From an uncultured Nitrososphaerota archaeon (GTDB lineage Archaea; Thermoproteota; Nitrososphaeria; Nitrososphaerales; Nitrosopumilaceae), in assembly GCA_963824385.1 (NCBI GenBank), contig CAWGPD010000001.1, positions 224,001 through 288,000 of the forward strand: DNA of 64,000 nucleotides, read 5' to 3'. The position numbers and the translations under genes were made by a program. Below are positions 9,041 through 25,301 of this stretch, one piece after another. Each line of letters opens with the position of its first letter. Within the stretch, counting starts at the first letter, position 1. Under the pieces are notes generated by a model. It searched no databases, had not been told where the DNA came from, and saw nothing but the letters and a program-made list of their open reading frames with translations.

Positions 9041-9835
9041 TTGGTCGACGTTTGGACTTTTGTAGCAATATCCATTCCTACAATGATCCTACTAGGTATG
9101 CGACATGCCCTTGATGTTGATCATATAACTGTAATAGACAATCTAGTACGATTACACAATGCTATTAAAAAATCAAGATGGGTAGGTGCAGGATTTAGTG
9201 CTGGACATATGGCATCAGTATTAGCAGAGATGCTTTTCATAATTTATGTAGTTGGCAGTATAACCAGTGCAAATAATCTCATGTTTTGGGGCGGCGTGGT
9301 TGGAGCAATTGCTTTGGGAGTAATAGGTGCAATCAACATCATTTCAATGAAAAAATGGGGAAGGAGCGGTGTCGCAATATTTGCTAGCAAGATTCTTGCT
9401 AGAACTGGAGTTTTAGGACCAGTTGGATCTTCAGTAGTCACGGGTTTGATATTTGGCCTTGGCTTTGATACTGCTACACAGATCTCTGCAATTACATTGT
9501 CTGCGGTAGCATCCGCTACGGCTGGAATGCAAACAGCACTAATCCTTGCAGGATTCTTTGCTCTTGGAATGATTCCAATAGATACTTTTGACAGCGTTCT
9601 ATTGCGTTCCGCATTCTCCAAGATACTTCACGCAAAAGGATTCAGGTATACATCATATGCATTAAGCGCTGCAGCATTGACAATCGCTGCTGTTGCAGCA
9701 TATGAAACGTTAACAAATTCAGAGATACTTCCAGAATTGACAGGTCCAGTTTTGGCAGTGACAATAGTTTCTGCTTCATTTGGATATGCTTTTGTCACAA
9801 GGAAAAAAATTCAAGGAACAAAGCATGCGGATTAG
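9041..9835 (+). CDS. NiCoT (HoxN/HupN/NixA) family nickel/cobalt permease
   Basis: RHALDVDH, GFSAGH and GLGFDTATQ signatures, with multiple TM helices. Confidence 0.85.
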   Translation: MVDVWTFVAISIPTMILLGMRHALDVDHITVIDNLVRLHNAIKKSRWVGAGFSAGHMASVLAEMLFIIYVVGSITSANNLMFWGGVVGAIALGVIGAINIISMKKWGRSGVAIFASKILARTGVLGPVGSSVVTGLIFGLGFDTATQISAITLSAVASATAGMQTALILAGFFALGMIPIDTFDSVLLRSAFSKILHAKGFRYTSYALSAAALTIAAVAAYETLTNSEILPELTGPVLAVTIVSASFGYAFVTRKKIQGTKHAD

Positions 9836-9875: not shown

Positions 9876-10628
9876 TTAATTGCCTTTTTTGTACAAACAA
9901 ATATTATTTCCATAACATGAGTTATCAATACCAGAAATATCAGCCCCTTGTGTGATAGCACCATGCAGGTGTGCATTGGCAAAGACGTCCCCAACAAGAG
10001 ATGCGTCGGAAAGATTTGCATATCTTAGATTAGCATATGAAAAATCAGCAGTCTGACATATACAATATGAAAGATCTACACCTTGCATATTTGCAGCTGT
10101 AAAATCAGCACCATTGAATTGGGCTTGTGTGAATGTTGCACTCTCCATGTTTGCGTCTTGAAAGGTAGACCATGGAAATGTAGAACCAGTAAACTTGGCA
10201 TCTCTAAGATCTGCTCCATTAAAATTTGTGGACCAAATAACTGCATATCTTAGGTCAGCGCCATGAAGGTTTGCACCTGAAAGGTTTACACCTGAAAGGT
10301 TTACACCCTTCAAGTCTACATTTTGGAGATCTGCATTTTGAAGATTGACGCCAAACAAATCTGCGTTTACAAAAATACTTCCGGACATATTAGCGCCATA
10401 CATATTAGCATTATGAATACTGAGGTTATCCCAATGACAGTTACTCAAATCAGCATCTGGTTGCACTTTTATGTTGCAAAGTTTTGTGGATGGCGTTACA
10501 GAAGTATTATCGTTTGAGTTTAGATTTGCATTTTGCTCATCACCAAAAACCTTTGTTACTTGCCCCATTGGGAATAGAACCAACATTGCAGTGATAAAAA
10601 ATAAAGCGATTTTTGGATTTATTTGCAT
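9876..10628 (-). CDS. Exported pentapeptide repeat protein
   Basis: Signal peptide followed by many A(N/D)LxG-type pentapeptides. Confidence 0.9.
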   Translation of the reverse strand: MQINPKIALFFITAMLVLFPMGQVTKVFGDEQNANLNSNDNTSVTPSTKLCNIKVQPDADLSNCHWDNLSIHNANMYGANMSGSIFVNADLFGVNLQNADLQNVDLKGVNLSGVNLSGANLHGADLRYAVIWSTNFNGADLRDAKFTGSTFPWSTFQDANMESATFTQAQFNGADFTAANMQGVDLSYCICQTADFSYANLRYANLSDASLVGDVFANAHLHGAITQGADISGIDNSCYGNNICLYKKGN

Positions 10629-10664
10629 AATACGTTCAACATAATCAAGGTAATTTAAGACCTG

Positions 10665-10687
10665 TGGTACAACTATCGAAAATAAAT
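10665..10687. promoter_or_regulatory. Island motif half-site upstream of the pentapeptide gene
   Basis: Minus strand reads TGTACCA-CAGGT-CTTAAAT. A TATACCA half-site lies at 10709-10715. Confidence 0.55.
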
Positions 10688-10856
10688 TCCAATTCCAATT
10701 TCATGGAATATACCATACTTGTGTAATTATATTTGCAAGGAGAAATCTGCGAAAGATGTTTAATTTAGGAAATAAAGTCTACAAACATACTGGTACTAAT
10801 TTCAATGGTACTTGTTGAAAAATAAAAAAGAATTGGTTATGGTAAAAAAATAGTTT

Positions 10857-11894
10857 TTACCCAATTACGTTCATAAATCCAGTGGCAATAGAGAACGTTG
10901 ATGTGTATCTTTCGTTGTTTTTACTAAGATCTACAGTCGTGAGCACTTGTGTTGACAAGAGCAAAGTCAGTTACTCCATAAGGATTTGCCGACTCTGTTG
11001 TTTGTGCAGGATGACCATTATTATCTCCCATGTAAGGAGCGTCTGCATCTGTTTTCAAACCAATGTCAAAGTGGTATACGCACATGCCAAGTGTTTTGGG
11101 ACTTGATATGTGATTTAGATACTGCATTGTTGATGCCTCCATTGTAAAGACTCCTCCGTCTATGATTCCTTGATAGAGTCTAAGGTCTGGAGTTCCATCT
11201 GATTCACACGGTAATACCATTGCCATGTGTCCATGGGTAGTGTACCAAGGTGTGGTATCTGCCAAGTCCAAGAATGTGCCAGGCTTTAGGGATTACTCCT
11301 GCAAGATGGAACCATTCTTCAGTTGGGACTCCACCATTTCCAGGTAGAGACGATAGTCCTGCTGATGGGACGTTCCATCCATCAGTGTAGTTACCTTGTG
11401 TGTAACCTCTTACTGGTGCAACATCACAGTCGCCATAGTATCCTATTCCATTTTGCACCCAACATGGATGATTTACATCCAATCCCATCATGTTTGGATA
11501 GTTCATGTTAACTATGCCTACATCCATCTCCATCAGTGGTATTCTGCTGGGCACACCATCCTGTAAATGATGAAGCTTGCAGTACAGAGGATGGCGGGTT
11601 GTTTGGATATGATGCCATGTCGTAGATGAATGTGTCTCCAGGACCTCTTGTTGGTGAGTCTGATGGTAGAGTTGTCATCATACACATGTGAGGATTTCCA
11701 TTTAGACCAGTTGTGAAATAACTTGGTGGCGGTGCTGTCGTAGTCGGTGGATTAAATGGTGTTGGTGCTGCGATATATGGTGCTTGAAAGCCATATGCAG
11801 AGGTCATTGTCTGACCAGAACCTGCCATTCCCAATCCGACTATTACTGCAATTGCCACAATTGCAGTCGTCGATTTTCGTTGTTGAAAATTCAT
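10857..11894 (-). pseudogene. Exported His/Cys/Met-containing protein split by three +1 frameshifts (likely sequencing errors)
   Basis: ORFs 11508-11894, 11204-11554, 10924-11271 and a tail ending FMNVIG* (stop 10857-10859) join by removing single bases. Signal peptide present; motifs DLADTTP..GHMAMVLPC and CVYH. Confidence 0.7.
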
Positions 11895-11930
11895 TAAATC
11901 TCTTGTTGATACTTTTTATTTTAAACATTA

Positions 11931-11953
11931 TGGTACAAAAGTAGAATGATTTT
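11931..11953. promoter_or_regulatory. Island motif half-site
   Basis: Minus strand reads TGTACCA-TAATG-TTTAAAA, about 25 nt before ATG 11894. Confidence 0.6.
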
Positions 11954-12070
11954 TTGCATTGCTGCCAGTAAAAGTTACTGTGTTATCGGCACAATCAATT
12001 AATTTGTCTGACATTTGCAAGGACAAGTCTTCGAAAGACGTTTAATTTACCAGATAGAGTCTAAGATTGT

Positions 12071-13183
12071 TTGAAAAAATATCTTGGATTAATTCTGGTA
12101 GGAGTTTTGGCAATACAGGTGCTGAGTATCTCCCAAGTGTTTGCAGTATACCCATGCGATAGCCCATACTGCCCATATACTCCACCTGGTTTTCAAACGG
12201 AGGACTTTAAATTAAAATCAAATCCTGTCATATGTGAAATAGAGCCAAATGATACAAGATTTCCAAATCTTGCACAGACTGTAATCACTACAACTCATCA
12301 AGCTGTAAAAAATTGGACAACTCTTCTAAACAGTGATGCTGAAAAAAATTCCACATGGGATATAGATGAGATAATAATTCCTCCAGGTGATAAGACAAAT
12401 CTAGACCCTGCATGCAACATTGCCATCGTATATGAAAGTCAGGAGCTTGACTATTGTGGTCAGGTGTTTAATGGAGTGTATTTTCCCTGCGGTCAAATAT
12501 TTAATGGAAAATCAATTCTCAATCCAGATATAGGGACTTCTCTTATTCTCATCCCATATCTTATGCCAATATACGGCAAGCAGTGTGAATATGAAAAAAA
12601 TGGCACCGTCTATGATTCCATATGTCGTTCCCAGCAAGAGATTGAGAGTCATTCAAGTCTTTTGAAAGCAATCCAGCACGAGATGGGCCATTCCATGGGG
12701 CTTGGACATTTCATTGCAAACTCGCAAGACGAGGTGGACAGGTGGTTTGCAGGAACTCAATCTGTTCCGTCTATAATGGTCTCAGGACAAGAGGGATACA
12801 TGGAGTATGCCAAAGTTACTCCACTTGATGCAAGCCAAGTTCGGGACATATATGGAAAAAATGGATTTAAAGAAATTAGTACGGTGGACGTACAGAATTC
12901 ATCCAGTCTTAGATTACAAATTCAATCACATGTTCCATCATGGATAAAAAATGTGACAGATTTGTGGTTGCAAGAAAAGATTACTGATTTGGAATTTGAG
13001 GACTGTATAAAATATCTCCCATGGCAGGGAGTAATTTCAATTCATAATACCATACCTTCTTCATCGATGATACAAGAGATTCCTTCATGGGTTAAAGACA
13101 TTGTAAAATGGTGGAGTATTGGTCAAACTGACGACACTTACTTTACAAGCATAGCACAGTGGATAATACAGACTAGAGTATGA
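12071..13183 (+). CDS. Exported matrixin-like (metzincin) zinc metalloprotease with C-terminal PSWIK-type repeats
   Basis: HEMGHSMGLGH, SIM Met-turn, signal peptide, VPSWIKN and IPSWVKD repeats. Confidence 0.85.
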   Translation: MKKYLGLILVGVLAIQVLSISQVFAVYPCDSPYCPYTPPGFQTEDFKLKSNPVICEIEPNDTRFPNLAQTVITTTHQAVKNWTTLLNSDAEKNSTWDIDEIIIPPGDKTNLDPACNIAIVYESQELDYCGQVFNGVYFPCGQIFNGKSILNPDIGTSLILIPYLMPIYGKQCEYEKNGTVYDSICRSQQEIESHSSLLKAIQHEMGHSMGLGHFIANSQDEVDRWFAGTQSVPSIMVSGQEGYMEYAKVTPLDASQVRDIYGKNGFKEISTVDVQNSSSLRLQIQSHVPSWIKNVTDLWLQEKITDLEFEDCIKYLPWQGVISIHNTIPSSSMIQEIPSWVKDIVKWWSIGQTDDTYFTSIAQWIIQTRV

Positions 13184-13389
13184 AATCATCCCTTTTTAAA
13201 AGAAAATATACCCAATTTGGAACCAGCATTTTAGTATCATCCATTCAATGGTCAAAAAATATACCACTATTGTATTTTTAGTTAAACCCTGGCAGAGGAT
13301 GCTAGTCATATCTGCCAGAGTCATCGTTATGATGAACAACGATACACTATGTTTAGACATAATCATACTTGTTCAAATAATAAAGAGAT

Positions 13390-13412
13390 TGGTACATTCA
13401 TCTATTGTACCA
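13390..13412. promoter_or_regulatory. Island motif, perfect dyad
   Basis: TGGTACA-TTCATCTAT-TGTACCA. Confidence 0.7.
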
Positions 13413-13495
13413 TAAATTTTCAAATAGAATAATAGAGTTACACAGTCAAAATATACATTAAACTAAAATAATAAAAAATAATTTCCAGAATAGAA

Positions 13496-13576
13496 TTAAT
13501 TTTTGTCTCTTTTTAGAAACGAAAACCATTTTCTTTTGGGTTTTTCTTTAGGCATAGTAGGTTGTTTGTCTTCCAT
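13496..13576 (-). CDS. Putative 26-aa basic microprotein MEDKQPTMPKEKPKRKWFSFLKRDKN
   Basis: Short ORF downstream of the motif plus TATA arrangement (TGTACCA-ACGAT-GTTATTAAA). Confidence 0.4.
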   Translation of the reverse strand: MEDKQPTMPKEKPKRKWFSFLKRDKN

Positions 13577-13610
13577 AAACATAATGTGGTTTTAATTTTA
13601 ATAACATCGT

Positions 13611-13633
13611 TGGTACATTCGGTAATTGTACCA
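13611..13633. promoter_or_regulatory. Island motif, perfect dyad
   Basis: TGGTACA-TTCGGTAAT-TGTACCA. Confidence 0.7.
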
Positions 13634-13805
13634 GACTTGTTTTATCTCACAACATATTATCTTCCAATAACTGGAATGTCATAGCCATATTTGCCATCGA
13701 GTAAATTGCTATTCATAAATGACATTCCAGTATATTTTTTTAAATATCGGAGAACAAAAAATTATTTCCCATTGTTTCAAGATATTAATTTTTATTTTTG
13801 TAACA

Positions 13806-13828
13806 TGGTACATTTCTCGATTATACCA
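13806..13828. promoter_or_regulatory. Island motif, near-perfect dyad
   Basis: TGGTACA-TTTCTCGAT-TATACCA, followed after 5 nt by CTTATTA. Confidence 0.65.
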
Positions 13829-13862
13829 TTTTCCTTATTACGTCATATGCATCATTTAAGAT

Positions 13863-13924
13863 AAGGACGACAAAACCACGCCAGACCATATCGAGCCATG
13901 TGGTTCTCGTCTTTTTTTATTTTA
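13863..13924 (+). terminator. Stem-loop followed by a T-tract (terminator or small RNA)
   Basis: GACGA..AACCAC pairs with GTGGTT.TCGTC, followed by TTTTTTTATTTT. Confidence 0.35.
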
Positions 13925-13949
13925 CAAAAAATTAGTGTTCAAGTCCAGA

Positions 13950-14423
13950 TTAGTGGACTATCACAACAGGGCAAGGAGAATTCTCCAGTACATGACGGCT
14001 GACACTTCCAAGAATTTTTATTTTATTTATGCCTCGCAGTCCCTGGCTGCCCATAATTATGAGACCATTTTTGTTTGTTCTTGGCATGATCAAGTATGGC
14101 TTTAGCAGGATTGTCTGATACTACTTTGTAGCTTGCCTTTACGCCCTTATTTTGGCAATATGCCTCACAATCTTGCATAAATCCATGGGCTTCGCTTACT
14201 GCCTTTTTTGCAAATTCATCAATTGCCTTGGATGCACTCTTGCCTTTGATTGCACCTGAGAGAACTACCCCCGCAGGTCGTGCCGTAGATGCACTCACAG
14301 ACTGCTAAGAGTTCAATCTCAGAATCAAGTCTTTTGGAGATCTCGATTGCTTCGTCTAGTGCTCTTTTAGAATACTCTGAATCCATCCAGTGGAACAAGT
14401 ATGCTAGAATAACTTTTTACCAT
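13950..14423 (-). pseudogene. Universal stress protein (UspA family), several frameshifts
   Basis: MVKSYSSILVPLDG-SEYSKRALDEAI at the start, LGSVSRHVLENSPCPVVIVH* at the end, in different frames. Confidence 0.8.
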
Positions 14424-14489
14424 AAACTAAAGTCAAGTTTTAGTCTATTATAAACATTGAAGAATATCATTTTTGATAATATAAAAAGG

Positions 14490-14792
14490 CTAGTTTTGTT
14501 GCTTGTTTCGTGTAATTGCAATAACTGCAATTACAATACCTGCAATGCCAATACCAATTCCAGTCATGCTTATCATGTATAGTGTATCAATACTATTCTT
14601 TACGTCCTGGAAAGATTGTGCCACATGTGAATAACTCTGGGCAGCACTATTGGCAGTATTTTTTGCATCGTTGATTTCGCCAGTCAGTTGGTCTATAACA
14701 TTTTGTGATGTCTGTGCAGATGCATGATGAATCAAATTAGACATTCCAACAAAACACAATGCAAGAACAAAAGTTAAAATTATAATTTTCAT
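14490..14792 (-). CDS. Small exported/membrane-anchored protein
   Basis: Signal peptide, helical segment, C-terminal TM with GxGxG. Confidence 0.7.
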   Translation of the reverse strand: MKIIILTFVLALCFVGMSNLIHHASAQTSQNVIDQLTGEINDAKNTANSAAQSYSHVAQSFQDVKNSIDTLYMISMTGIGIGIAGIVIAVIAITRNKQQN

Positions 14793-14829
14793 GTGTTATC
14801 AAAAAACGCCAATTTTCTTAAATATGTTT

Positions 14830-14852
14830 TGGTACAAGATCAAAATAAAATC
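14830..14852. promoter_or_regulatory. Island motif half-site
   Basis: Minus strand reads TGTACCA-AAACA-TATTTAAG before ATG 14792. Confidence 0.55.
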
Positions 14853-15496
14853 CTAAAAGTTAAGAAAACCCCTAGTCTTTGCAGTCACTGCAATTACACT
14901 TACTATAGCAATTACAAGAACTAGTGATGCAATAGGACCAAATTCTGGTACTGCATTGTTTGACATGCTAGATTCATGTTGCCAGACATGTTCATCGAAT
15001 TTGTACTAGTCATGTTCATGGCATTCATGCTACCAGACATTGGTGGAAAATAATAACTGTCCTTGGCTTCAACTTCTTGCATTGGATATGTAGTAGATGG
15101 AACGGCTGTTCCGTTTATTGTACCCTGAATTATAACATTATAGGTTCCAGCTTGTGAGGGTATCAGGGCAGAGACATACAGTCCTGGAGTGTCATCACTT
15201 GCCTCAAAGTCTAGAGTCTTTGTCTGACCACCATATTGTATAGTGACAGTCATGTTGTTTAGTGCATTACCAACAATGGGTGCTGCTTGGTCAGTAGTTC
15301 CGTTATACACGTAGACGTCAACCTCATTCAAGTCTCCAACAAACGGCGGTTCATTTAACCAGCCTATTTTTACCGATAAATTTGGTGAAAAGTTCTTTAG
15401 GATATGTGCCTCTGCTGGATGAATAGCATACGGACCAACAATAACTACAACCAAAGCAAGTATAGCTGGGATTATTATTTTTCTATTCATGTCCAC
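14853..15496 (-). pseudogene. Exported His1 protein with Met-rich linker and PEFG-CTERM anchor; frameshift near 14970
   Basis: AEA-HILKNF, MSGSMNAMNM..., then in another frame AVPEFGPIASLVLVIAIVSVIAVTAKTRGFLNF* (stop 14853-14855). Confidence 0.8.
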
Positions 15497-15508
15497 TTGT
15501 CTCCATTA

Positions 15509-15967
15509 TCAAGGAAAGTTATACTTGTCCTTGGCTTCAACTTCTTGCATTGGATAAATGGTAGAGGGAATGGTCACTCCATCTATGGTTCCTTTGATTA
15601 TGGTATTGTATGTTCCAAGTTGTGTTGGAATTACAGCTGCACTATACAATCCAGGTGTATCATCACTTGCATCAAAACTGAGTACCTTGGTCTGACCACC
15701 ATATTGTACGGTTATGGTCATGTTATCAAGACCGTTACCTGCAATTGGAGGAGCAGAGTCATCAGTGCCGTTGTAAAGATAAACATCAATCTGATTTGTA
15801 TCACCAACAAGCGGAGGTTCATTCTCCCAGCCGATTTTTACTGAAACATTTGGTGCAAAGTTCTTCAAGATGTGCGCCTCTGCTGGATGAATAGCATATG
15901 GTGCAACAATAACTGCAACTATCGCAAGTAAGACTGGAATGATAATTTTTTTGGTGTTCATTTTCAT
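15509..15967 (-). CDS. Exported His1 protein, tandem paralog of the preceding gene lacking the anchor
   Basis: Highly similar (AEA-HILKNF, IGW.NEPP, ASDDTPGLY, YPMQEVEAKD) but ends at NFP*. Confidence 0.85.
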   Translation of the reverse strand: MKMNTKKIIIPVLLAIVAVIVAPYAIHPAEAHILKNFAPNVSVKIGWENEPPLVGDTNQIDVYLYNGTDDSAPPIAGNGLDNMTITVQYGGQTKVLSFDASDDTPGLYSAAVIPTQLGTYNTIIKGTIDGVTIPSTIYPMQEVEAKDKYNFP

Positions 15968-16005
15968 AATTAGTAAATATGCCGAATATTTGAATATATA
16001 GATTA

Positions 16006-16052
16006 TGGTACAACCCCAGAATACCGCAAAATTCTGTTTTGCGTTTGTACCA
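16006..16052. promoter_or_regulatory. Two back-to-back island motif sites in a divergent promoter
   Basis: TGGTACA at 16006 (minus: TGTACCA-TAATC-TATATAT) and TGTACCA at 16046 followed by ATAGG-ATATTAAAT. Confidence 0.65.
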
Positions 16053-16100
16053 ATAGGATATTAAATTTTAAATGCATACCAAGGAGTAGAATGTTGTATT

Positions 16101-19082
16101 ATGAGTTTTAAAAGTAGCATGTCGTCAAAGCCTTCAAATAAAATAATTTTTTCAGTATTTGTCTCATTGTTTATTTTGGCAATAATTTCAGGCATTCCAA
16201 AATCATATGAACACGCATTTGTCATAGACAGCAACCCCGCACCTGCTACATCAGTAAATACAGTTCCAGCACAGATTGAGATAGAGTTTGTCGACCCAAT
16301 CGACATGCGATATAGTCAGATCAAGGTATTGGATTCAAACGGCAAGGCAATACAAAATAATGATTGGCATTTTTTAAATGACGAGCATACAAAGACTGCA
16401 GTCACCCTTCCACCTGATACTCCAAATGGCATTTACACAGTTTACACCAAAGTACTTGATGCGACAGACGGTCATACAACTACAAATGCATTTGTCTTTG
16501 CAATAGGACAGCCAATACCTGCAAGTCTTTTGAATGCAAAAACAAACATTAGTTTTGCAGATATCGTATCCATTCCAGATAGCATTGCAAGATACCCGAC
16601 ACTTTTAGGACAGATAATTGTCGTGGGAGCTGTCTTCTCAACATTTTGGTTATGGAGACCAGTTTCTAGAATTCCTGCATTAAATGATGCAACAAAATTA
16701 ATGCGCTCAAAGATCGACATGAGCACAACCAAGATTGTACTGATTGGTTCCATTATAATTCTGATAGGAGATGTAGCAATGATTGCATCTGAAGCTTCGT
16801 CAATAAATTCCGGCATACTAGAAGCAATGGGCACTACATTTGGAAATTTATGGATTGTAAGAATGGTACTATCATTAGCATTGTTTGGAATTGCTTTATC
16901 GTTATACCTTAAACAAAAAAAATCAAACACAAATTTATCAAAAGGTCAGATAATTATTTTATTTGCATTAGGAATTGCAGTACTTACCACTACTACTTTG
17001 ATAAGCCATGGTGCGGCAAGCGGTAAGTTAGCTGCTGCGATACTTGATTTTGTACACAATGTGGTAGCATCATTATGGATTGGAAGTGTCATTTACTTGG
17101 CATTTATTGCAGTTCCGCAATTAAAAAAAGTACAAGACGAAAAAAGCAGCATGTCAGTTTTGTCATTAATCATACCCCAATTTTCTACAATAGTTGTTGC
17201 ACTTTTAGGGTTAGTAGTTATCACAGGGCCGTTTCTGCTCTATGTACTTGAGAACAATCTTTCATTGACTCTAGCATCAATATACGGTGAGATTCTCATC
17301 ATCAAACTCTCACTGGCTGCCGCAATGATAGGAATCGGGGCTTTTAATCAGAATGTAATTTACAGAAATGCGCTCAAAGCAGTAATATCATCACAGATTA
17401 CGAAAGGTTCCACAATGCCCAAGGATTACGAGGCTAGAAGTACAGGAAGTTCAGTTCTTGCCAAGTTTAACAAGAGCATAAAGATCGAGGCAATGATAGG
17501 GCTGGCTTTGATTGCATCAATTGCAGTATTGGCAGATTCTGGACTTCCAGCTATTCAATTCCAAGATGAATTAGTACAACAGCAACAGCAGATTCCGCAT
17601 GTCTTTGCATTTACCCCACTGGAGAGCCTAGTTCAAAACAAGTTTACCGAGACAAGTTTTACAGATAATGGAAATATCATACTAACTGCAGACCCGTTCT
17701 TTGCAGGACAAAATAATATTACAATATCATTTGTGGATTCAAAAAATAATCCAATTGATATCAACTCTACAAAGATTACACTAAACCAAGTAGACAAGGG
17801 AATTGGCCCAATTGCAGTCAATGATGCAGTAAAGATATCTCAGGGAGTATTTTCTGTCAACACTGCAGCTCTTGCAATACCGGGACACTGGGAAGCACAA
17901 GTAGAAGGATTAACAACAACAACTGGCGCACTAAACGTTGTTACAAACTTTAATGACCTATATGTAAAACCAAATTTGAATCAGCTTCAAGCCAACATAA
18001 CTGAATTCAAATTGCCAGACAGCAAGGCCTTGCCGCTATATCCAACTTTTGATGTCATCAGAAATGCAATATGGGTTGGAGACTCTGAAATTAACAGTGG
18101 AAGAATATGGGAGTTTAATCTAGGCTCTAAACAATATACAGAGCACAAAATTAATGGAACCAATATCATCACTGGAACTGCAATGGACTTTGAGAACAAC
18201 GTATGGTATATTGATCCCATAACAAAGATTGTTGGACAATACATGCCAGATGACAAGACGGATAAGAAATATCACATTCCAGGAAATGGTACAGTATCAG
18301 GAATTGTTGTAGACAACTCAGATAATATCTGGTTAACGGTATCAAGTACTAGCGAGGTTCTAAAACTAGATACAAAAACAAAGACATTCCAGTCGATAAA
18401 GTTGCCAGATAATTCTGTGCCACTTGGTATCTCAATTGACCAGTCAACAGGTCAGGCATGGGTAGCAGAGAGTGGCTCTGGAAAGATTGCAAACATAGAT
18501 CCTGCACAAAACTACAAGATTACAGAGTACACTCCATTTAACAGCACACTTGCAAGTCCTACTACAATATTATTTGATTCAGTAACTAACCAGGTCTTTG
18601 TTTCAGAACATGACGGCAAGGCAGTATCATCTTTTGATCCGTTGCTCAAGAGTTTTAAAAAATACAACACAGACCCTCAAGGCTTACCGTTTGGCATGGC
18701 ATTTGATCCAAATCATGATCTATGGTTGGCACAGCACACTCTAAACAAAGTAGCAGTTATAGATACAAGAACTGGCAAGTATGCCGAATTTAACATACCA
18801 ACTCCATCATCATTTACGCAATGGATAACAGCTGACTCGCAAGGTGACATGATAATAGCAGAGCAACGTGCAAATGCACTTGGAATAATCACCACTAGTC
18901 TAAAGCCAGGATTTGTTGAAAATACCGAAACAAGTACAACGTTAGGGTTGCAATTAGGAGTAGGATATGCAGACGTGGCAGGTCCTGCAATTGTAGCAGG
19001 GCTAGTAGGTGTGGCCTTTTTCTATACCAAGAGTGTGATGGATCTCAGGGGCAGTATAAAACAGGTAAAGAAAAACTATTAG
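16101..19082 (+). CDS. Copper resistance CopC-CopD fusion with Ig-like (YtkA-like) and Vgb-like beta-propeller domains
   Basis: HAFVIDSNP...DGH (CopC). SHGAA..DFVH..ASLWIG and YG.ILIIKL (CopD). PGHWEAQV. Repeated P.G...D..W.AE blades. C-terminal TM. Confidence 0.88.
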   Translation: MSFKSSMSSKPSNKIIFSVFVSLFILAIISGIPKSYEHAFVIDSNPAPATSVNTVPAQIEIEFVDPIDMRYSQIKVLDSNGKAIQNNDWHFLNDEHTKTAVTLPPDTPNGIYTVYTKVLDATDGHTTTNAFVFAIGQPIPASLLNAKTNISFADIVSIPDSIARYPTLLGQIIVVGAVFSTFWLWRPVSRIPALNDATKLMRSKIDMSTTKIVLIGSIIILIGDVAMIASEASSINSGILEAMGTTFGNLWIVRMVLSLALFGIALSLYLKQKKSNTNLSKGQIIILFALGIAVLTTTTLISHGAASGKLAAAILDFVHNVVASLWIGSVIYLAFIAVPQLKKVQDEKSSMSVLSLIIPQFSTIVVALLGLVVITGPFLLYVLENNLSLTLASIYGEILIIKLSLAAAMIGIGAFNQNVIYRNALKAVISSQITKGSTMPKDYEARSTGSSVLAKFNKSIKIEAMIGLALIASIAVLADSGLPAIQFQDELVQQQQQIPHVFAFTPLESLVQNKFTETSFTDNGNIILTADPFFAGQNNITISFVDSKNNPIDINSTKITLNQVDKGIGPIAVNDAVKISQGVFSVNTAALAIPGHWEAQVEGLTTTTGALNVVTNFNDLYVKPNLNQLQANITEFKLPDSKALPLYPTFDVIRNAIWVGDSEINSGRIWEFNLGSKQYTEHKINGTNIITGTAMDFENNVWYIDPITKIVGQYMPDDKTDKKYHIPGNGTVSGIVVDNSDNIWLTVSSTSEVLKLDTKTKTFQSIKLPDNSVPLGISIDQSTGQAWVAESGSGKIANIDPAQNYKITEYTPFNSTLASPTTILFDSVTNQVFVSEHDGKAVSSFDPLLKSFKKYNTDPQGLPFGMAFDPNHDLWLAQHTLNKVAVIDTRTGKYAEFNIPTPSSFTQWITADSQGDMIIAEQRANALGIITTSLKPGFVENTETSTTLGLQLGVGYADVAGPAIVAGLVGVAFFYTKSVMDLRGSIKQVKKNY

Positions 19083-19171
19083 AATAAATTTTTAATTAAA
19101 GAATTTGTCAAGTATAATTTTTTGTACAAAGTTCTTTAAACAATTTTTTAAAAATTAATCTAAAGACTCTG

Positions 19172-20158
19172 CTATCTGAACTTGGGCAGAGATCTTGCAA
19201 TAACAATTACAGAAACAAATGAAAGTATCACAAGCAGGAGAGGCATTGGAAACTCTGGTACTGCAGACGTATTTGATATTAATGGAATATTTAATCCAGA
19301 TATAAAATTAGGATGTATCTGCTCATGCACTATCATCATTACATCATCTCCGGATTGTTTTGTGTTGATATCTTGCTGTAATTGGCCAAAAGCAGTTTCA
19401 ATCTTGACAAGATAAGGAGATGCACTTGGCGGAGCCATCGATTTTACGTTTTCAAACATGGATTGAGCTGCAATTTCGAGTTGTTGAGAACTTTGATATG
19501 CTGGAGCATCAACAATCGTCATCTGAGTTCCTGTCATACTACCAGAACTTCCCATGTTCATTCCTGACATACCTTTCATTCCTGACATACCACTCATTCC
19601 AGACATGCTACCAGAACTTCCCATACTCATGTTATTCATATTCATATTTGCCATATTAGTGAGATCTTCTTTTGAGCCAATTGCATCAGCATAATCTATT
19701 AGTACTTGATTTAGGACATCAAGTGTTGCAAGAGATTGTATAGTTGCATTATTTTGCACAGAACTTGAAATTTCTGAAGCTTCGACTTGATCCAAAAGTT
19801 GATTCAGTACAACTGAATTTTGTGATGCAATAGTGAGGTCAGGGTTAGCACTGCCAGACATGGAATACAAATTATTAATTGCCGATGAAAGACTATTAGC
19901 CAAAGTTGCGTTTTGTTGAGTAAGTGTATTCATTTCATTTATCCCCCAATATTCTTGACTTTTTGAAATATGCCAGTTGGCAGTTTTACTGTCAGAAATA
20001 CTATTAGCAATAAGAGTTGATTCTACCTTGAATTCTTGGATTTTTGCAATAAGATCTGCATCGGAATTTTTTACAAAATTATGAGCAAATACAGGATGAA
20101 CAAACATCATTCCCACAAGTCCAATTACCATTAACGATACAACAATTTTCTTTGCCAA
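19172..20158 (-). CDS. Exported His1, Met-rich protein with PEF-CTERM anchor
   Basis: VFA-HNF, MSGMSGMSGMKGMSGM tract, MMIVHEQIHP, VPEFP followed by TM and basic tail. Confidence 0.85.
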   Translation of the reverse strand: MAKKIVVSLMVIGLVGMMFVHPVFAHNFVKNSDADLIAKIQEFKVESTLIANSISDSKTANWHISKSQEYWGINEMNTLTQQNATLANSLSSAINNLYSMSGSANPDLTIASQNSVVLNQLLDQVEASEISSSVQNNATIQSLATLDVLNQVLIDYADAIGSKEDLTNMANMNMNNMSMGSSGSMSGMSGMSGMKGMSGMNMGSSGSMTGTQMTIVDAPAYQSSQQLEIAAQSMFENVKSMAPPSASPYLVKIETAFGQLQQDINTKQSGDDVMMIVHEQIHPNFISGLNIPLISNTSAVPEFPMPLLLVILSFVSVIVIARSLPKFR

Positions 20159-20195
20159 ACTATGACAGTATATTCAAAATAATATTAAAATGTAA

Positions 20196-20218
20196 TGGTA
20201 CAATCTTCGAATATTACA
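20196..20218. promoter_or_regulatory. Island motif site
   Basis: TGGTACA-ATCTTCGAA-TATTACA. Minus strand reads TGTACCA-TTACA-TTTTAATA before start 20158. Confidence 0.65.
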
Positions 20219-20349
20219 AATTTTAGCCTCAATCTTGGTACAGCATTTACACCCATATCCACAATCCTTGGATTAATCCCAATCCACTTGTCTTGATTGT
20301 GGCATATTTTTTGTACATCATACATAATAATAAGGAAAAAAATAATGTG

Positions 20350-20493
20350 ATGGTAATGAAAAATCTTGTATGTGGAATGGAAGTAACCGAAAAGAAACAC
20401 ATGACAAAATACAATGGAAAAGACTTTCTCTTTTGTTGTGCCCATTGCAAAACAACTTTTGAAAAAAATCCAAAGCAATTTGTTAAAGAATAA
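20350..20493 (+). CDS. Stand-alone YHS/TRASH domain protein (candidate copper chaperone)
   Basis: VCGMEV...YNGKDFLFCCAHCKTTFEKNP. Confidence 0.85.
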   Translation: MVMKNLVCGMEVTEKKHMTKYNGKDFLFCCAHCKTTFEKNPKQFVKE

Positions 20494-20683
20494 CATTGAG
20501 GGTCATCATCCATCACGATGTTGTTTCTTATTTGACTAGAGAGAGACATCTCAATCATATGCTGCAATAACATTTGCAATAAATACACATTTGTTGTACA
20601 ATGAAGATTTACTTCATAGTTCAAATTCAAATACGATATCCTCCTATGATATTTTTATACAAGTTATGCGAAGAAGAGGTGAG

Positions 20684-20935
20684 ATGGGTCACCACAGCCT
20701 TGCTGATAACATAATGATGCTTGTGATGTCAGTTGCAATGCTTACAATGGTAATGTCAATGTTAATCATGGGAGTCAATTGGTCCATAGTACTCCTAATT
20801 CTATCAGGAGTATTGACAGCTGTAACAACTGTCTTTTATTCATTCCAGTCTGCCAGATGTATGTGTGGAACCAATCAATACAATAAGCAATCAAACAAAG
20901 CGATATCTGACGCTACATGTGATTGTCCTAAGTGA
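20684..20935 (+). CDS. Small two-TM membrane protein with His/Met/CxC motifs
   Basis: GAGGTG RBS, MGHH start, Met-rich TM1, CMC and CDC in the tail. Confidence 0.65.
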   Translation: MGHHSLADNIMMLVMSVAMLTMVMSMLIMGVNWSIVLLILSGVLTAVTTVFYSFQSARCMCGTNQYNKQSNKAISDATCDCPK

Positions 20936-21203
20936 AAAATGATGAATAAATATAGCACATGCGATTCAACGATATAACATTTGTAAGTCAAGAAAAAACT
21001 ACATGATGTAGATATTCCAGTTTTAAAAAATGGTACCATCCCAGGAATTTTACTAAATGAGGAGTAATATCAAACATCAATGTCATTGTACTTTTGTGTC
21101 AAAGTTAGTATCTCCAGAATATTTTGCAGAAAGTGTATGAGTTCCAATCAATAATGACGAGGAGGACATTGTAGTCATATGAGTACTAGTTCGAATCGGA
21201 GTG

Positions 21204-21599
21204 TTATTTTCTCCTTTGACTAATTATAACCCATGCAAATGGAATTCCTACCAGACATGCTGTGAGCATAGTCATCCATTCCAAAAAAATGGGTATTTTT
21301 TCATTTGAAGATATTCCCAACCTGTCAGACATTTCGCGCATACCAGACATGTTGGACATACCAGCCATTCCATGCATACCAGACATGTTGGACATACCAG
21401 CCATTCCATGCATACCAGACATGTTGGACATACCAGCCATTGTCTCACTTGATATCATTTTAATCGAGTATGCAGAATAGTATTGTTCAGCATTTACTGT
21501 ATGAAGTTGAGAAACTAATACAAATACAATACCTACGAAAATGATCGAAAAAAGACCAAACCAAACACAGGCCAAGTTTTTCTTTAACATAGAGGCCAT
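21204..21599 (-). CDS. Membrane-anchored Met-rich repeat protein
   Basis: N-terminal hydrophobic segment, (MAGMSNMSGMHG) repeats, C-terminal TM and RRK. Confidence 0.7.
   Translation of the reverse strand: MASMLKKNLACVWFGLFSIIFVGIVFVLVSQLHTVNAEQYYSAYSIKMISSETMAGMSNMSGMHGMAGMSNMSGMHGMAGMSNMSGMREMSDRLGISSNEKIPIFLEWMTMLTACLVGIPFAWVIISQRRK
21338..21441. repeat. 36-bp in-frame tandem repeat, about 2.9 copies
   Basis: Unit cataccagacatgttggacataccagccattccatg. Confidence 0.9.
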
Positions 21600-21637
21600 T
21601 CGTAACACTCGTTTATTTCTTTTAGAAATTAAAATCA

Positions 21638-21660
21638 GTGGTACAATCCACGAATGAATT
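21638..21660. promoter_or_regulatory. Island motif half-site between the Met-repeat gene and the metallothionein-like gene
   Basis: Minus strand reads TGTACCA-CTGAT-TTTAATT. Confidence 0.6.
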
Positions 21661-21714
21661 ACCAAAATTGAGAATCAAGGACATGCATATCTATGGATTT
21701 AAACAATAAACAAT

Positions 21715-21822
21715 ATGACACATTGTAATTGTGGAGCTAAACATGAAACTACTTGTAGTTGTCAAAAAACTGGCAAATGCGACTGCGGCAGTAGTTGCAC
21801 CTGCAAAGATTGCAGATGTTAA
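21715..21822 (+). CDS. Metallothionein-like protein (35 aa, 10 Cys)
   Basis: Manual translation MTHCNCGAKHETTCSCQKTGKCDCGSSCTCKDCRC*: five CxC pairs, no aromatic residues, immediately upstream of copA. Confidence 0.8.
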   Translation: MTHCNCGAKHETTCSCQKTGKCDCGSSCTCKDCRC

Positions 21823-21893
21823 TCAAGCAACACGTGTTCACAGCAAGCCAAGTAATGAGGTTAAAATATTCTTCTTTTTTAGAGTGAGCTAGA

Positions 21894-23999
21894 ATGGCGC
21901 GAGACCCCATATGTGGAATGTTTGTAGAGGAAAAAAATGAGTCATTAAATTTTGAAACAGATGGAAGAAGGTATTATTTTTGCTGCAAAAGCTGCCTAGA
22001 CGAATTCGCCATGCCAGAAAAAGAACTCAAAAAACTAAAGAGTCATGTCGTACTGGCTATCATTTTAACAATTCCCACAGTTTTGCTAACATATATCGCA
22101 ATTATACCTCACCAATTAAACCCCTACGTACTTTTTGCATTAGCAACACCAGTCCAGTTCTGGCTCGGTTGGAGATTCTATCAGGGTACATATGATGCAT
22201 TCAAGCACAAGATGACTAACATGGATGTCCTAATCGCATTAGGAACATCCACCGCGTGGGGATACAGCACTGTCATAACTTTTGTGCACAATGTAGTACC
22301 AATGGCAGATGTATACTTTGAAACATCTTCAGTCATAATCACGCTTTTGTTAATTGGAAGATTACTTGAGAGTAAGACCAAGACAAGAGCATCAAAGGCT
22401 GTAAAAAAACTACTGGATCTTAAACCAAGATTTGCTCATGCCATAAAAAATAATCAAGAGGTAGAGGTACCAGTTGAGCAAGTACAACCAGACGATATAA
22501 TCATAGTTCGTCCAGGGGAAAGAATACCTGTAGATGGAACAATAATTGAAGGAAGATCGTCAATAGATCAATCTGCGATAACAGGTGAGAGTATCCCAGT
22601 AGAAAAAGAAGTTGGAGATGATGTCATTGGAAGCACCATCAACAAAGAAGGCGCATTCAAATTCAAAGCAACCAAGGTAGGAGACGAATCTGTCTTATCG
22701 CAAATAGTAAAGCTTGTCGAGGATGCAAAATCAAGCAGGGTTCCGATACAAAAGCTTGCTGATAAAATATCATCATATTTTGTACCACTTATAATTACAA
22801 TAGCAATAATTTCTGCACTGGGGTGGTTCTTTGTAGGTGGAATTGGCCTTACTTTCTCAATTCTTGCATTTGTTTCAGTAATAATAATTTCTTGTCCATG
22901 TGCGCTTGGAATTGCAACACCTGCAGCTCTAATGGTAGGAGCAGGCAAGGCTGCAGAAAACGGCATCCTGATAAAGGGTGGTGAAAATCTTGAAAATGCA
23001 AGAAAGGTTCAGATTATAATATTCGACAAAACCGGGACTTTAACCAAGGGAATTCCTTCTGTTACTGATGTTGTGACTATAAACGAGATGAACAGCGATG
23101 AGATATTACGCCTTGCCGCAATTTCAGAGAAAAATTCAGAGCATCCCCTTGCAAGAGCTATAGTAAGACATGCAAAAAAAACAAATCTCGTAGTTTCAGA
23201 TCCAGATTCGTTTAAATCCATCACAGGTAGTGGAGTTGAAGCCCAGTACGGAGATCATCAGATATTGATAGGAAATAGAAAATTCATAACAAATAACGGC
23301 ATTACAATTGATGAAAAAATGGAGAAGAAGATTCAGGAATTTGAAGAAGGCGGAAAGACTACAATCATCATATGTATTGACAAAAAATTATCAGGAATAA
23401 TTGCAATGATGGATACGATCAGTGACAACGCACTAGAAGCCATACAGAGGCTCAAAAAGAATGGAATTCAAGTAGCAATGCTTACAGGAGACAACACAAA
23501 GATTGCCAATGCAATAGCAAGTAAACTTGGAATAGACCGAGTTTTCGCAGAAGTATCACCTCAAGAAAAAGAGAACGTCATAGCAAAAATAAAGCAAGAA
23601 GGAAAGACTGTAGCAATGGTGGGAGATGGAATCAATGACGCCCCCGCACTTGCAGCAGCTGATTTAGGAATAGCATTTGGAAGTGGAACAGATATTGCAA
23701 AGGAGACTGGAGGGATTATACTTGTCAAAGATGATTTAAGAGATGTTGTAACAGCAATAGAGCTAAGCAAGAAAACTGTTGCCAAGATTAAACAAAATCT
23801 TGTACTGTCATTTGTTTACAACTCGGCATTAATTCCAGTTGCAGCTGGCGCACTTGTTCCAATATTTGGCCCTCATGTGTACATGATCTTGCCGTTTCTT
23901 GCAGCTGGCGCAATGGCAACAAGCTCCATAACGGTAATTAGTAATTCCCTATTATTGAACAGGTACAAACCAATGAGACAGAGGTTAGAAATAAAATGA
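21894..23999 (+). CDS. copA: Copper-translocating P1B-type ATPase with N-terminal YHS/TRASH domain
   Basis: [40 protein letters not shown], MxxSS. Confidence 0.93.
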
Positions 24000-24172
24000 T
24001 CCCAAAATCCATTTTATTGATACGTGAAACTTCATATCATAATTTTAGGAGAAATATGTCAACTCAGATCTTTACTGCATGGGCGCACTCTCCATACAGC
24101 AAAGAGCAGAGCAGAATGAAGTCAAATCATTATGCAGTATCAATACCACGTCATTTTACAAGATAAAGAAAT

Positions 24173-24249
24173 TGGTACATTAGTCGAATATACCATGTAT
24201 GAAGATACTTTGCTTCATACCATGAATGAGCCATTCTATAGTTGTACCA
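24173..24249. promoter_or_regulatory. Three island motif sites at 27-bp period upstream of the regulator operon
   Basis: TGGTACA-N9-TATACCA (24173-24195), CATACCA (24216-24222), TGTACCA (24243-24249), then GTTCG-TTTAAAT. Confidence 0.7.
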
Positions 24250-24283
24250 GTTCGTTTAAATTTCTAAAAAGCGTAAATTTACT

Positions 24284-24676
24284 ATGCAGAAAGAAAGCCA
24301 TCTATTGGAAAATAGGCCAAAGCTTTTTACCATAATCATTTTTTCTGTAATCGCAATTTTTGCAGTACCAGTAATACTTCCTCATGTATTTCACGAATTT
24401 CAAGTCTTCCACATACTACTCCACTTAAGCGGAGTTGCAATAGCCAGTTTTCTTACCATAGTTTCTTCAGTAGCATATGCAAGAATTAAAACAAAAAGGC
24501 TAATGTTTACAATGATAGCATTTGGCTTATTTGCAGTTGCAGAGGTATTCTCAGTCATCGATGCAGCATGGCAGTATACTTATTATTTCGGGTCCGTCTC
24601 AGCAGATGAGGTAGGACATATTCTTGAATTATGCACATTGGGGATGTTTGCATTGAGTGTGTTTAGGAGAGATTAG
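24284..24676 (+). CDS. Four-TM membrane protein with several His residues
   Basis: Hydrophobic helices, PHVFH, FHILLH, GHILE. Ends 1 nt before the regulator gene. Confidence 0.75.
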   Translation: MQKESHLLENRPKLFTIIIFSVIAIFAVPVILPHVFHEFQVFHILLHLSGVAIASFLTIVSSVAYARIKTKRLMFTMIAFGLFAVAEVFSVIDAAWQYTYYFGSVSADEVGHILELCTLGMFALSVFRRD

Positions 24677-24677
24677 A

Positions 24678-25175
24678 ATGGATAGAAGTATAGAGATCAT
24701 AAACATTGTAGAGAAAAATCCAGGGATAAAGTTTCGAGAGATTATGAGAGAGTCCGGACTGAAAAATGGAGTTCTAAGTTATCACGTAAGAAAATTAGAA
24801 GAGAGTGGTAGTGTAAAGATAGATAGAAAGTCAGGAGAGACCCGATTTTATCCCCTTTGCGTTACAGATGAAGAATCAAATCTTATAACAAGTCTTAGGC
24901 GAGACACTCAAAGATATATTTTATTATCTTTGCTTGATGGTAAATCACTTGCATTTAATGAGATAGTTTCGAAAGTCAGAAAATCACCTTCGACTGTTTC
25001 TACATTCCTTGGAAGACTTGTTGATGATAACATAGTGGAAATTAAGATCGTGGGATTAAAGAAAGTCTACTTTTTAAAAAATACAGACATGGTTCGTGAG
25101 ATAATTGAAAAATACAATCCAATTCTTCTTGAAAGAACTGCATACAACTTTGCAGACACGTTTGCAAACCTTTAG
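24678..25175 (+). CDS. Double winged-helix transcriptional regulator
   Basis: NPGIKFREIMRESGLKNGVLSYHVRKLE and a second HTH, FNEIVSKVRKSPSTVS. Confidence 0.85.
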   Translation: MDRSIEIINIVEKNPGIKFREIMRESGLKNGVLSYHVRKLEESGSVKIDRKSGETRFYPLCVTDEESNLITSLRRDTQRYILLSLLDGKSLAFNEIVSKVRKSPSTVSTFLGRLVDDNIVEIKIVGLKKVYFLKNTDMVREIIEKYNPILLERTAYNFADTFANL

Positions 25176-25301
25176 GAATTACAACTCACAATTTACCATG
25201 CAGTCACGTATTATGCAATAATTGTACCATAATACTAGATACGAGTAAATGAGAAACTACTCACTATTTATTTAGAGTCAAAGGATAAAACTCAATCAAA
25301 T

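Follow-up and report, generated by a model that had tools for sequence, protein, structure and literature searches.

We analyzed a window of 64,000 nt from the genome of an uncultured Nitrososphaerota archaeon (genome G000; 1.68 Mb in 5 contigs, 86% complete). The window contains a copper island at 9.9-25.2 kb that encodes a CopC-CopD-propeller fusion, a CopA-type ATPase, a YHS chaperone, His/Met-rich secreted proteins and a double winged-helix protein. We propose, with a probability of about 0.6, that the island forms a copper-limitation regulon by which ammonia-oxidising archaea would raise copper uptake and spare copper through antisense RNAs. The proposed regulator is the double winged-helix protein (24678..25175, plus strand), whose closest named relatives, at 80-90% identity, are Nitrosotalea records. 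It would bind a one-sided operator, TTC-N6-TGWACYA, directly upstream of the transcription factor B (TFB) recognition element (BRE) and the TATA box, presumably with one domain per sub-site. Upon copper shortage it would turn on its own operon, copCD and the genes of His/Met-rich surface proteins, most likely by recruiting TFB; a His-rich membrane protein would restrain it when loaded with copper and release it at shortage. Two overlapping sites in opposite orientation form a dyad, and dyads would drive small hairpin RNAs whose free segments may base-pair across the AUG of mRNAs that have short leaders and encode the main copper sinks (cupredoxins, a NirK-type oxidase and AmoA/AmoB). Such pairing would lower the translation of these sinks, so that copper is spared.

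The initial annotation of this DNA had defined a copper regulon by the dyad TGGTACA-N9-TGTACCA and had reported full or near-full copies at 13390, 13611, 13806 and 24173. All four are present (at most 2 mismatches) where 0.29 are expected, and none of 100 shuffled sequences reached four. The window contains 27 copies of the core TGTACCA, where 7.8 would be expected. When spacers of 0-20 were scanned genome-wide, perfect dyads were found with spacer 9 only, in 2 copies that both lie in the island; the initial annotation had noticed no such intergenic dyad outside 10-25 kb. A genome-wide motif search, which the initial annotation had suggested as a check, also showed a concentration in the island: it holds, within 15 kb, 16 of the 64 intergenic copies of TGTACCA of the 1.68-Mb genome. 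A weight matrix trained on the loci of other genomes placed its top 8 genome-wide matches, and 8 of the 10 matches of at least 19 bits, in the island; no high-scoring site ahead of the amo genes or other distant genes appears in that genome-wide list.

The dyad is a minority form of the operator, and not its defining form as had been claimed. Analysis of 95 promoter sites from 54 related loci showed that the information resides in a TTC (-9 to -7 relative to the core) and the core itself, giving TTC-N6-TGWACYA. A palindrome as the general form was ruled out, since the left-arm positions of the 95 sites carry at most 0.28 bits. The single sites that had been listed as half-sites do exist (the one given at 21638 is actually at 21639), but they are one-sided motifs and not half-dyads, and the site at 25223, which is 72 nt away from the next start, lacks a TATA box at +6. 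The described placement of a TATA-like box about 5 nt after TGTACCA was borne out: TATA starts 6 nt past the core (a 5-nt gap), and the core lies 34-40 nt from the start codon at seven promoters and 48 nt at copCD. This agrees with the genome-wide TATA peak at 29-32 nt before the ATG, which implies that the messages would have very short leaders.

One operator next to BRE/TATA does join copCD and the His/Met-rich surface proteins, as the initial annotation proposed, but its further claim of general copper homeostasis did not stand. The weight-matrix scan found no operator directed at copA (21894..23999, plus; a P1B ATPase with an N-terminal YHS domain), at the YHS/TRASH metallochaperone gene (20350..20493, plus) or at an unannotated, metallothionein-like open reading frame (ORF) of 35 aa with 10 Cys directly before copA (21715..21822, plus; no Pfam match). 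The lack of sites at these three genes points to a limitation regulon rather than general copper homeostasis, and fits a limitation arm kept apart from export.

The position of the operator bears on the sign of regulation. BRE positions -7/-6 are taken up by the final two bases of the core, and A is only modestly depleted in the spacer relative to genome-wide promoters (A at -3: 0.31 vs 0.45), whose BRE consensus is itself weak. Because the core overlaps the BRE and the BRE is not clearly weak, the helix-turn-helix (HTH) protein could also be a repressor that uses copper as corepressor and keeps TFB off the BRE whenever copper is abundant, with genes and RNAs being de-repressed on starvation. 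Metal-uptake genes are usually corepressed in bacteria, YcnK/CutR, NikR and Fur providing precedents, and genomes lacking the regulator retain copCD and the TATA-side sequence, as expected if its loss results in constitutive expression. We nevertheless consider repression unlikely: the rigid 5-nt spacing and the orientation, seen in every family, suit a contact with TFB, whereas a steric repressor needs neither, and two proteins that occupy this position elsewhere, TFB-RF1 and CopR, are activators. Activation by the operator's regulator is plausible from the promoter layout, and TFB recruitment is the probable route.

No regulator was named in the initial annotation, which also overlooked that a hairpin RNA of 65-85 nt is predicted behind each of the four full dyads. 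On the TATA side, none of these dyads precedes a protein gene. The best conserved is RNA-A (24052..24138, minus; the ends of all four RNAs are approximate), headed by the dyad 24173..24195 (minus; 1 mismatch), both arms of which are invariant in 19 relatives. It lies in the DNA between copA and the membrane-protein gene, which is 72-87% conserved and contains no ORF. In these relatives, the dyad arms together with the TATA box are nearly invariant. Behind them come an unpaired seed of sequence G(A/G)CTTCAT (the single-stranded invariant seed at 24115-24126), a stem of 13 bp that shows covariation, and a T run; the indels present would break a reading frame. These indels rule out that RNA-A is a micro-ORF. 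The stem is 96% paired and contains 14 double-change cells versus 3.9 in shuffled alignments (0/500 shuffles as many); just 4 pairs change on both sides, which was reached in 56 of 500 shuffles.

The three other dyads are likewise followed by hairpin and T-run elements, which are conserved in a few close relatives. RNA-B (13285..13356, minus), with two hairpins, is headed by the perfect dyad 13390..13412 (minus), with TATA TTTATTAT on the minus side; its positions 13331-13345 are complementary to the start of the NirK-type gene. The perfect dyad 13611..13633 heads RNA-E (13663..13740, plus), a long hairpin with a T run, on the plus strand, and a 28-aa ORF (13582-13496) on the minus strand. The encoded basic/aromatic peptide is conserved in genomes G182, G324, G334 and G205, and more distantly in G327. 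RNA-C (13859..13922, plus) consists of a hairpin and a T run behind the dyad 13806..13828 (plus; 1 mismatch), with TATA CTTATTAC on the plus strand; its loop (13880-13894) is complementary to the amoA and amoB starts. None of the four RNAs matched an Rfam covariance model at E values up to 1. In the loci collected here, 56 dyad sides carry a TATA-like box; an ORF follows 16 of them and none follows the other 40 (some genomes being counted twice). On the combined presence of operator, TATA box, covarying hairpin, T run and frame-breaking indels, we regard the dyad-headed elements as putative non-coding RNAs under the operator of the regulon. Further dyad-headed hairpins with other loops were seen at L001:9123-9217, L004:9174-9268, L344:1202-1296 and L059:2369-2463, all on the minus strand.

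We then examined what the free segments of these RNAs could pair with. A 12-nt complement of RNA-A spans the AUG of two genes of the PF00127 plastocyanin family (G000:C2:84431 and 83674), the top two of 4898 candidate starts. For RNA-B, the best duplex genome-wide is with the start of the multicopper oxidase gene G000:C3:294272, which we take to be of the NirK type and which is frameshifted in the G000 assembly but whole in G182 and G205. RNA-C shows complementarity of 11 nt across the amoB AUG and 10 nt across the amoA AUG. A uniform test was applied to 1945 first-ATG starts, a set that does not include the true amoB start and in which some of the 13 copper genes, defined by motif, are doubtful. 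By exact match, RNA-A ranked the two cupredoxins first (12 nt; 0/60 shuffles as good) and RNA-C ranked amoA first (10 nt; 1/60 shuffles). By duplex energy, RNA-B ranked the NirK-type gene first (-29.0, a value reached at any start by 0/40 shuffles).

Comparison between genomes gave additional indications. RNA-A pairs over at least 8 nt across a cupredoxin AUG in 15 of the 18 scorable genomes (of 24), and RNA-A and its cupredoxin target change together in G351. A compensatory change links RNA-C and the amoB leader, with a G-C pair in G000 and an A-U pair in G182 and G324. Near-dyad sites in three genomes of another family, f3, head a different covarying hairpin. In 4 of the 5 genomes searched, its seed is complementary, with one mismatch or bulge, to the start of a large multicopper-oxidase/cupredoxin gene. 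This is a prediction in another family that held.

Several results weigh against regulation by these RNAs. By exact match, RNA-B is unremarkable (10/60 shuffles) and RNA-E is likewise not ranked first; by duplex energy, RNA-A is 11th and RNA-C 23rd, so the ranks depend on the metric, and the metrics were partly chosen after hits had been seen. The best complement of RNA-E, 14 nt, lies at the start of a CBS-domain gene, and the target scan found no copper target for it. RNA-A pairs over just 6 nt in 3 of the 18 genomes, and G349 shows no compensatory change between RNA-A and its target. Homologues of RNA-C were found in 4 of 60 genus genomes, one of them with a different loop. RNA-D, a marine counterpart at 8 loci, pairs weakly with amoA/amoB starts (-12 to -21 kcal/mol), its seed pattern matched no start codon, and it persists in genomes that lack the regulator and its membrane protein.

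These points could mean that the protein regulon is right but that the hairpins are terminators, leaders or micro-ORFs whose complementarity to copper-protein starts arose by chance. We consider this improbable, because the elements have their own TATA box at canonical spacing, frame-breaking indels, covarying stems and invariant unpaired seeds, and because the matches sit on the AUG itself, show compensatory changes and were predicted successfully in f3. Pairing of the free segments over the AUG of copper-protein mRNAs is very likely on in silico grounds, and it would probably lower the translation of the copper-sink mRNAs.

In the marine family, the dyad (L087:6970-7064, L089, L090, L092, L097, L218, L219, L222 and L234) is flanked by a conserved hairpin RNA and, on its opposite side, by a nitrilase-like gene; the 5' part of this RNA resembles the complement of amoA/amoB starts.

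The proposed regulator gene lies in an operon behind a gene for a four-helix membrane protein (24284..24676, plus), and the operon has its own operator at 24234..24249 (plus). These two genes are referred to below as the pair. We surveyed 301 genomes of the class, including families f1, f2, f3 and f5 of the order and 47 genomes outside the order. Homologues of the membrane gene were found in 179 of the 301 (f1 125/191, f2 10/10, f3 40/43, f5 2/4, outside the order 1/47). For comparison of operons, 40 loci were selected from 178 pair-positive genomes with a view to contiguity and spread. The HTH gene follows the membrane gene in 40/40 loci, once split by an insertion. The motif precedes the operon in all 40 loci, in four families and even without another copper gene nearby. 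This operon is the sole target retained in all families. The motif lies 5 nt before the TATA box with a strict core in 35/40 loci and with one mismatch in 5/40, compared with 35/506 for other ORFs. A strict pattern of motif plus TATA was present in 67/178 pair-positive versus 2/122 pair-negative genomes (reversed control, 8/300), and by coordinate comparison at least 30 of the positives have a match away from the operon itself. A loose version of the pattern was dropped, as its reversed control was about equally common over the 301 genomes. The split HTH gene, in G112, is interrupted by a transposase-like insertion (L093:8159-9319), and the operators are still present there.

Loss of the pair is accompanied by decay of the site. 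The pair was absent from the copCD locus in 20/20 negative genomes checked and present in 5/5 controls, and most of the 76 pair-negative genomes of the order have no full-length HTH match, those matches examined being 23-39% identical or broken. In genus g3, the core at the copCD-divergent promoter is intact in 38/39 pair-positive versus 14/27 pair-negative genomes; the losses are scattered single bases, and the TATA side is retained. When only assemblies with 10 contigs or fewer are considered, an intact core is seen in 36/42 genomes with the pair versus 10/30 without. This scoring took in 70/76 positive and 59/76 negative genomes (the others had no retrieved copCD start or were outside f1), and the related genomes counted are not phylogenetically independent.

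The motif also covaries with the HTH protein. In 111 distinct operons, Arg at residue 27 goes with G at one core base in 94/94 cases and Ser with C/A in 16/16, and Cys occurs once, with G. In the Ser lineage (genus g2), the altered core TCTACCA is found at a second promoter in 10/12 genomes.

Three points count against this assignment. In an initial sample of the 30 best copCD matches per group, the site was kept in 27/30 genomes with the pair and in 24/30 without. Among near-complete pair-negative g3 genomes, 5/16 hold site scores of at least 16, so that either the pair was lost recently or a second reader exists. The change from Arg27 to Ser is restricted to one lineage and thus represents a single evolutionary event. 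We propose the double winged-helix protein as the reader of the operator; that an unlinked factor (a TFB paralogue with an extended BRE, or a two-component CopR/S system, as PMC7785015 proposed) reads it, with the membrane/HTH operon as a mere target, would suit the persistence of sites in many pair-less genomes, the abutment of the motif on the TFB site and an up-regulated two-component pair named in PMC7785015, but is very unlikely given that site decay follows pair loss, that the motif base shifts with the HTH residue at two separate promoters in g2 and that no target other than this operon is retained in every family. A second double winged-helix paralogue (G000:C3:131687-132199, minus; 23% identical) has no operator; such paralogues may pair with other membrane proteins of the DUF7471/7521 type.

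The regulator consists of two tandem winged-helix domains (PF24266 and an ArsR-like HTH) without conserved metal ligands, lacking a conserved Cys or a His/Met cluster. It scores 40.6 with the ArsR model NF033788, below the cut-off of 55. A metal-sensing repressor of the ArsR/SmtB type was ruled out on the basis of this score, the tandem domains and the lack of a conserved metal site. A fold search with the HTH protein returned single ArsR-like domains only, and no PDB sequence relative was found. The membrane protein yields a confident four-helix model (predicted local distance difference test, pLDDT, 91), and an alignment of 44 sequences revealed three invariant His (H43, H47 and H112), two near-invariant His (H34 and H37) and two near-invariant Glu (E87 and E109). 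It is weakly like DUF7471/DUF7521/DUF5985 proteins, and its fold search gave generic helical bundles only (best Foldseek E 1.1; best Z 9.4). As the HTH protein has no metal site, the co-transcribed His-rich membrane protein is the candidate copper sensor; that it detects copper and, once loaded, keeps the regulator inactive has, in our estimate, an even chance of being right.

The proposed logic has parallels outside the Archaea. In Fur/RyhB (bacterial iron) and in SPL7/CRR1 with GTAC elements and copper microRNAs (plants and algae), a limitation regulator induces uptake together with small RNAs that silence metalloprotein mRNAs. The same combination is proposed here, and the core described here also contains GTAC, a likeness that we take as convergence. 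Complementarity to metalloprotein translation starts, as in RyhB, was found for 3 of the 4 window RNAs and for the f3 RNA, with metric-dependent ranks. The differences are the archaeal promoter machinery, an unrelated regulator fold, several RNAs each directed at a start codon and a putative membrane sensor. In Bacillus, YcnK/CutR regulates a CopC-CopD fusion (ycnKJI) according to copper status, and CopY binds the cop box TACAnnTGTA. These systems share with the island the copper control of a CopC-CopD fusion and TGTA/TACA sub-sites, but they have their own copper ligands and short palindromes bound over the promoter.

Within the Archaea, the operon resembles that of TFB-RF1 (PF1088)/PF1089 of Pyrococcus furiosus, where, as described in PMC5937170, a regulator gene also follows a gene for a membrane protein with four transmembrane helices and activates its own operon from a site at a fixed distance upstream of a weak BRE. 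The likeness is in operon layout and fixed site distance, the BRE here being only slightly poorer than the weak genome-wide consensus; TFB-RF1 differs by its palindromic site TCTGAANTTCAGA and its target, an ABC exporter. CopR/CopT, with an Lrp-type HTH and a TRASH domain (PMC7830388), is likewise a copper-linked activator acting directly upstream of the BRE, but it responds to copper excess, controls copA, recognises TTNNCAWWWTGNNAA and senses through its own TRASH domain. The HTH protein here has no TRASH domain, copA has no site, and no PF08394 match exceeded the cut-off in G000 (86% complete). On the features compared, the system here is not of the CopR/CopT type.

The initial annotation considered the regulon undescribed, but the motif and its link to copper have been published for Nitrososphaera viennensis. 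The main text of PMC7785015 reports a motif, TTCSGSMTTTGWACYANT, located between -35 and -70 relative to the start codon, with 12 occurrences before genes induced by copper limitation; the motif-bearing cluster, including copC/D and an operon of a hypothetical and an ArsR-annotated gene, is up 2.2-2.8 log2 on copper chelation. Two cupredoxins are down 1.3-1.6 log2 under copper limitation, and amoA/amoB are also down. Two findings of that report (PMC7785015) do not favour our interpretation: some multicopper oxidases rise under copper limitation, and the decrease in amo was ascribed by the authors to energy shortage. The two motifs agree in consensus, in distance to the start codon (34-48 nt in the window) and in the cluster (copC/D, exported proteins and the hypothetical + ArsR-annotated operon), the pair here being equated with NVIE_014290/014280 by gene order and not by sequence. 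In the upstream sequences published there for NVIE_014290 and NVIE_1457, as judged by eye, 5 nt likewise separate the motif from a TATA-like box. The study differs in that it concerns one species, and its main text makes no TATA link, assigns no regulator, calls regulation an open question and does not mention small RNAs.

Thus, the motif and its connection with copper limitation were already known, whereas the regulator assignment and the dyad-headed small RNAs appear to be new. The literature searched, which did not extend to subscription papers (including the N. maritimus copper transcriptome), yielded no paper that names this regulator or RNAs of this kind in these archaea, and term searches in PMC13674081, PMC13003922 and PMC5069720 found none either. 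We tentatively suggest, at somewhat less than even odds, that ammonia-oxidising archaea share a copper-sparing circuit so far undescribed in Archaea, in which a membrane His-cluster sensor would release a double winged-helix activator of uptake genes and of trans-acting RNAs that block the start codons of amo, nitrite reductase-type oxidase and plastocyanin mRNAs.

In soils, oceans and treatment plants, copper is a limiting factor for archaeal nitrification, and chelators of this metal serve as nitrification inhibitors. The motif study did not settle how copper is sensed in these archaea; a regulator, a sensor and a base-residue pair can now be named for testing. If our interpretation is true, copper status would control amoA/amoB directly at the RNA level, and the RNAs would be the first of the metal-sparing type to target amoA/amoB and other copper enzymes. 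Antisense RNAs against amoA/amoB would surprise specialists. Such RNAs would escape gene-level RNA-seq and could mark copper stress in the field, and amoA transcript counts could then overstate activity in copper shortage.

The other operators of the island each precede a protein gene. The one-sided operator at 10665..10680 (minus) lies 5 nt before TATA and 36 nt before a pentapeptide-repeat gene (10628-9876), and that at 11931..11946 (minus) lies 36 nt before a secreted protein gene starting at 11894. The operator at 14830..14845 (minus) is 37 nt ahead of the gene for a 100-aa membrane-anchored protein (14792-14490). Back-to-back operators occupy 16006..16052, with 16006-16021 (minus) serving the secreted His-1-type genes 15967-15509 and 15496-14921, and 16037-16052 (plus) serving copCD, which encodes the CopC-CopD-beta-propeller fusion (16101..19082, plus; PF04234, PF05425 and PF24684). 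The operator at 20196..20211 (minus) is 37 nt ahead of gene 20158-19172, which encodes a Met-rich surface protein of a family with the site in 50 loci, and that at 21639..21654 (minus) precedes the gene of a Met-repeat membrane protein (21599-21204).

The ORFs at 11894-10924 (minus), three in number, resemble a single gene of about 270 aa split by frameshifts, with a 270-aa relative in L001. Together with the NirK-type gene G000:C3:294272 and amoB (G000:C3:99438; 134 aa), this gene is frameshifted or shortened in G000 and whole in relatives; assembly indels are probably the cause. Fragments of a universal stress protein-like gene are present at 14023-14420 (minus). At the edge of the island, a NicO/HoxN nickel-cobalt transporter gene (9041-9835, plus) has no visible operator, and a weak Rfam FuFi-1 match within it (9569-9761, plus; 28 bits versus a gathering threshold of 60) is probably due to chance.

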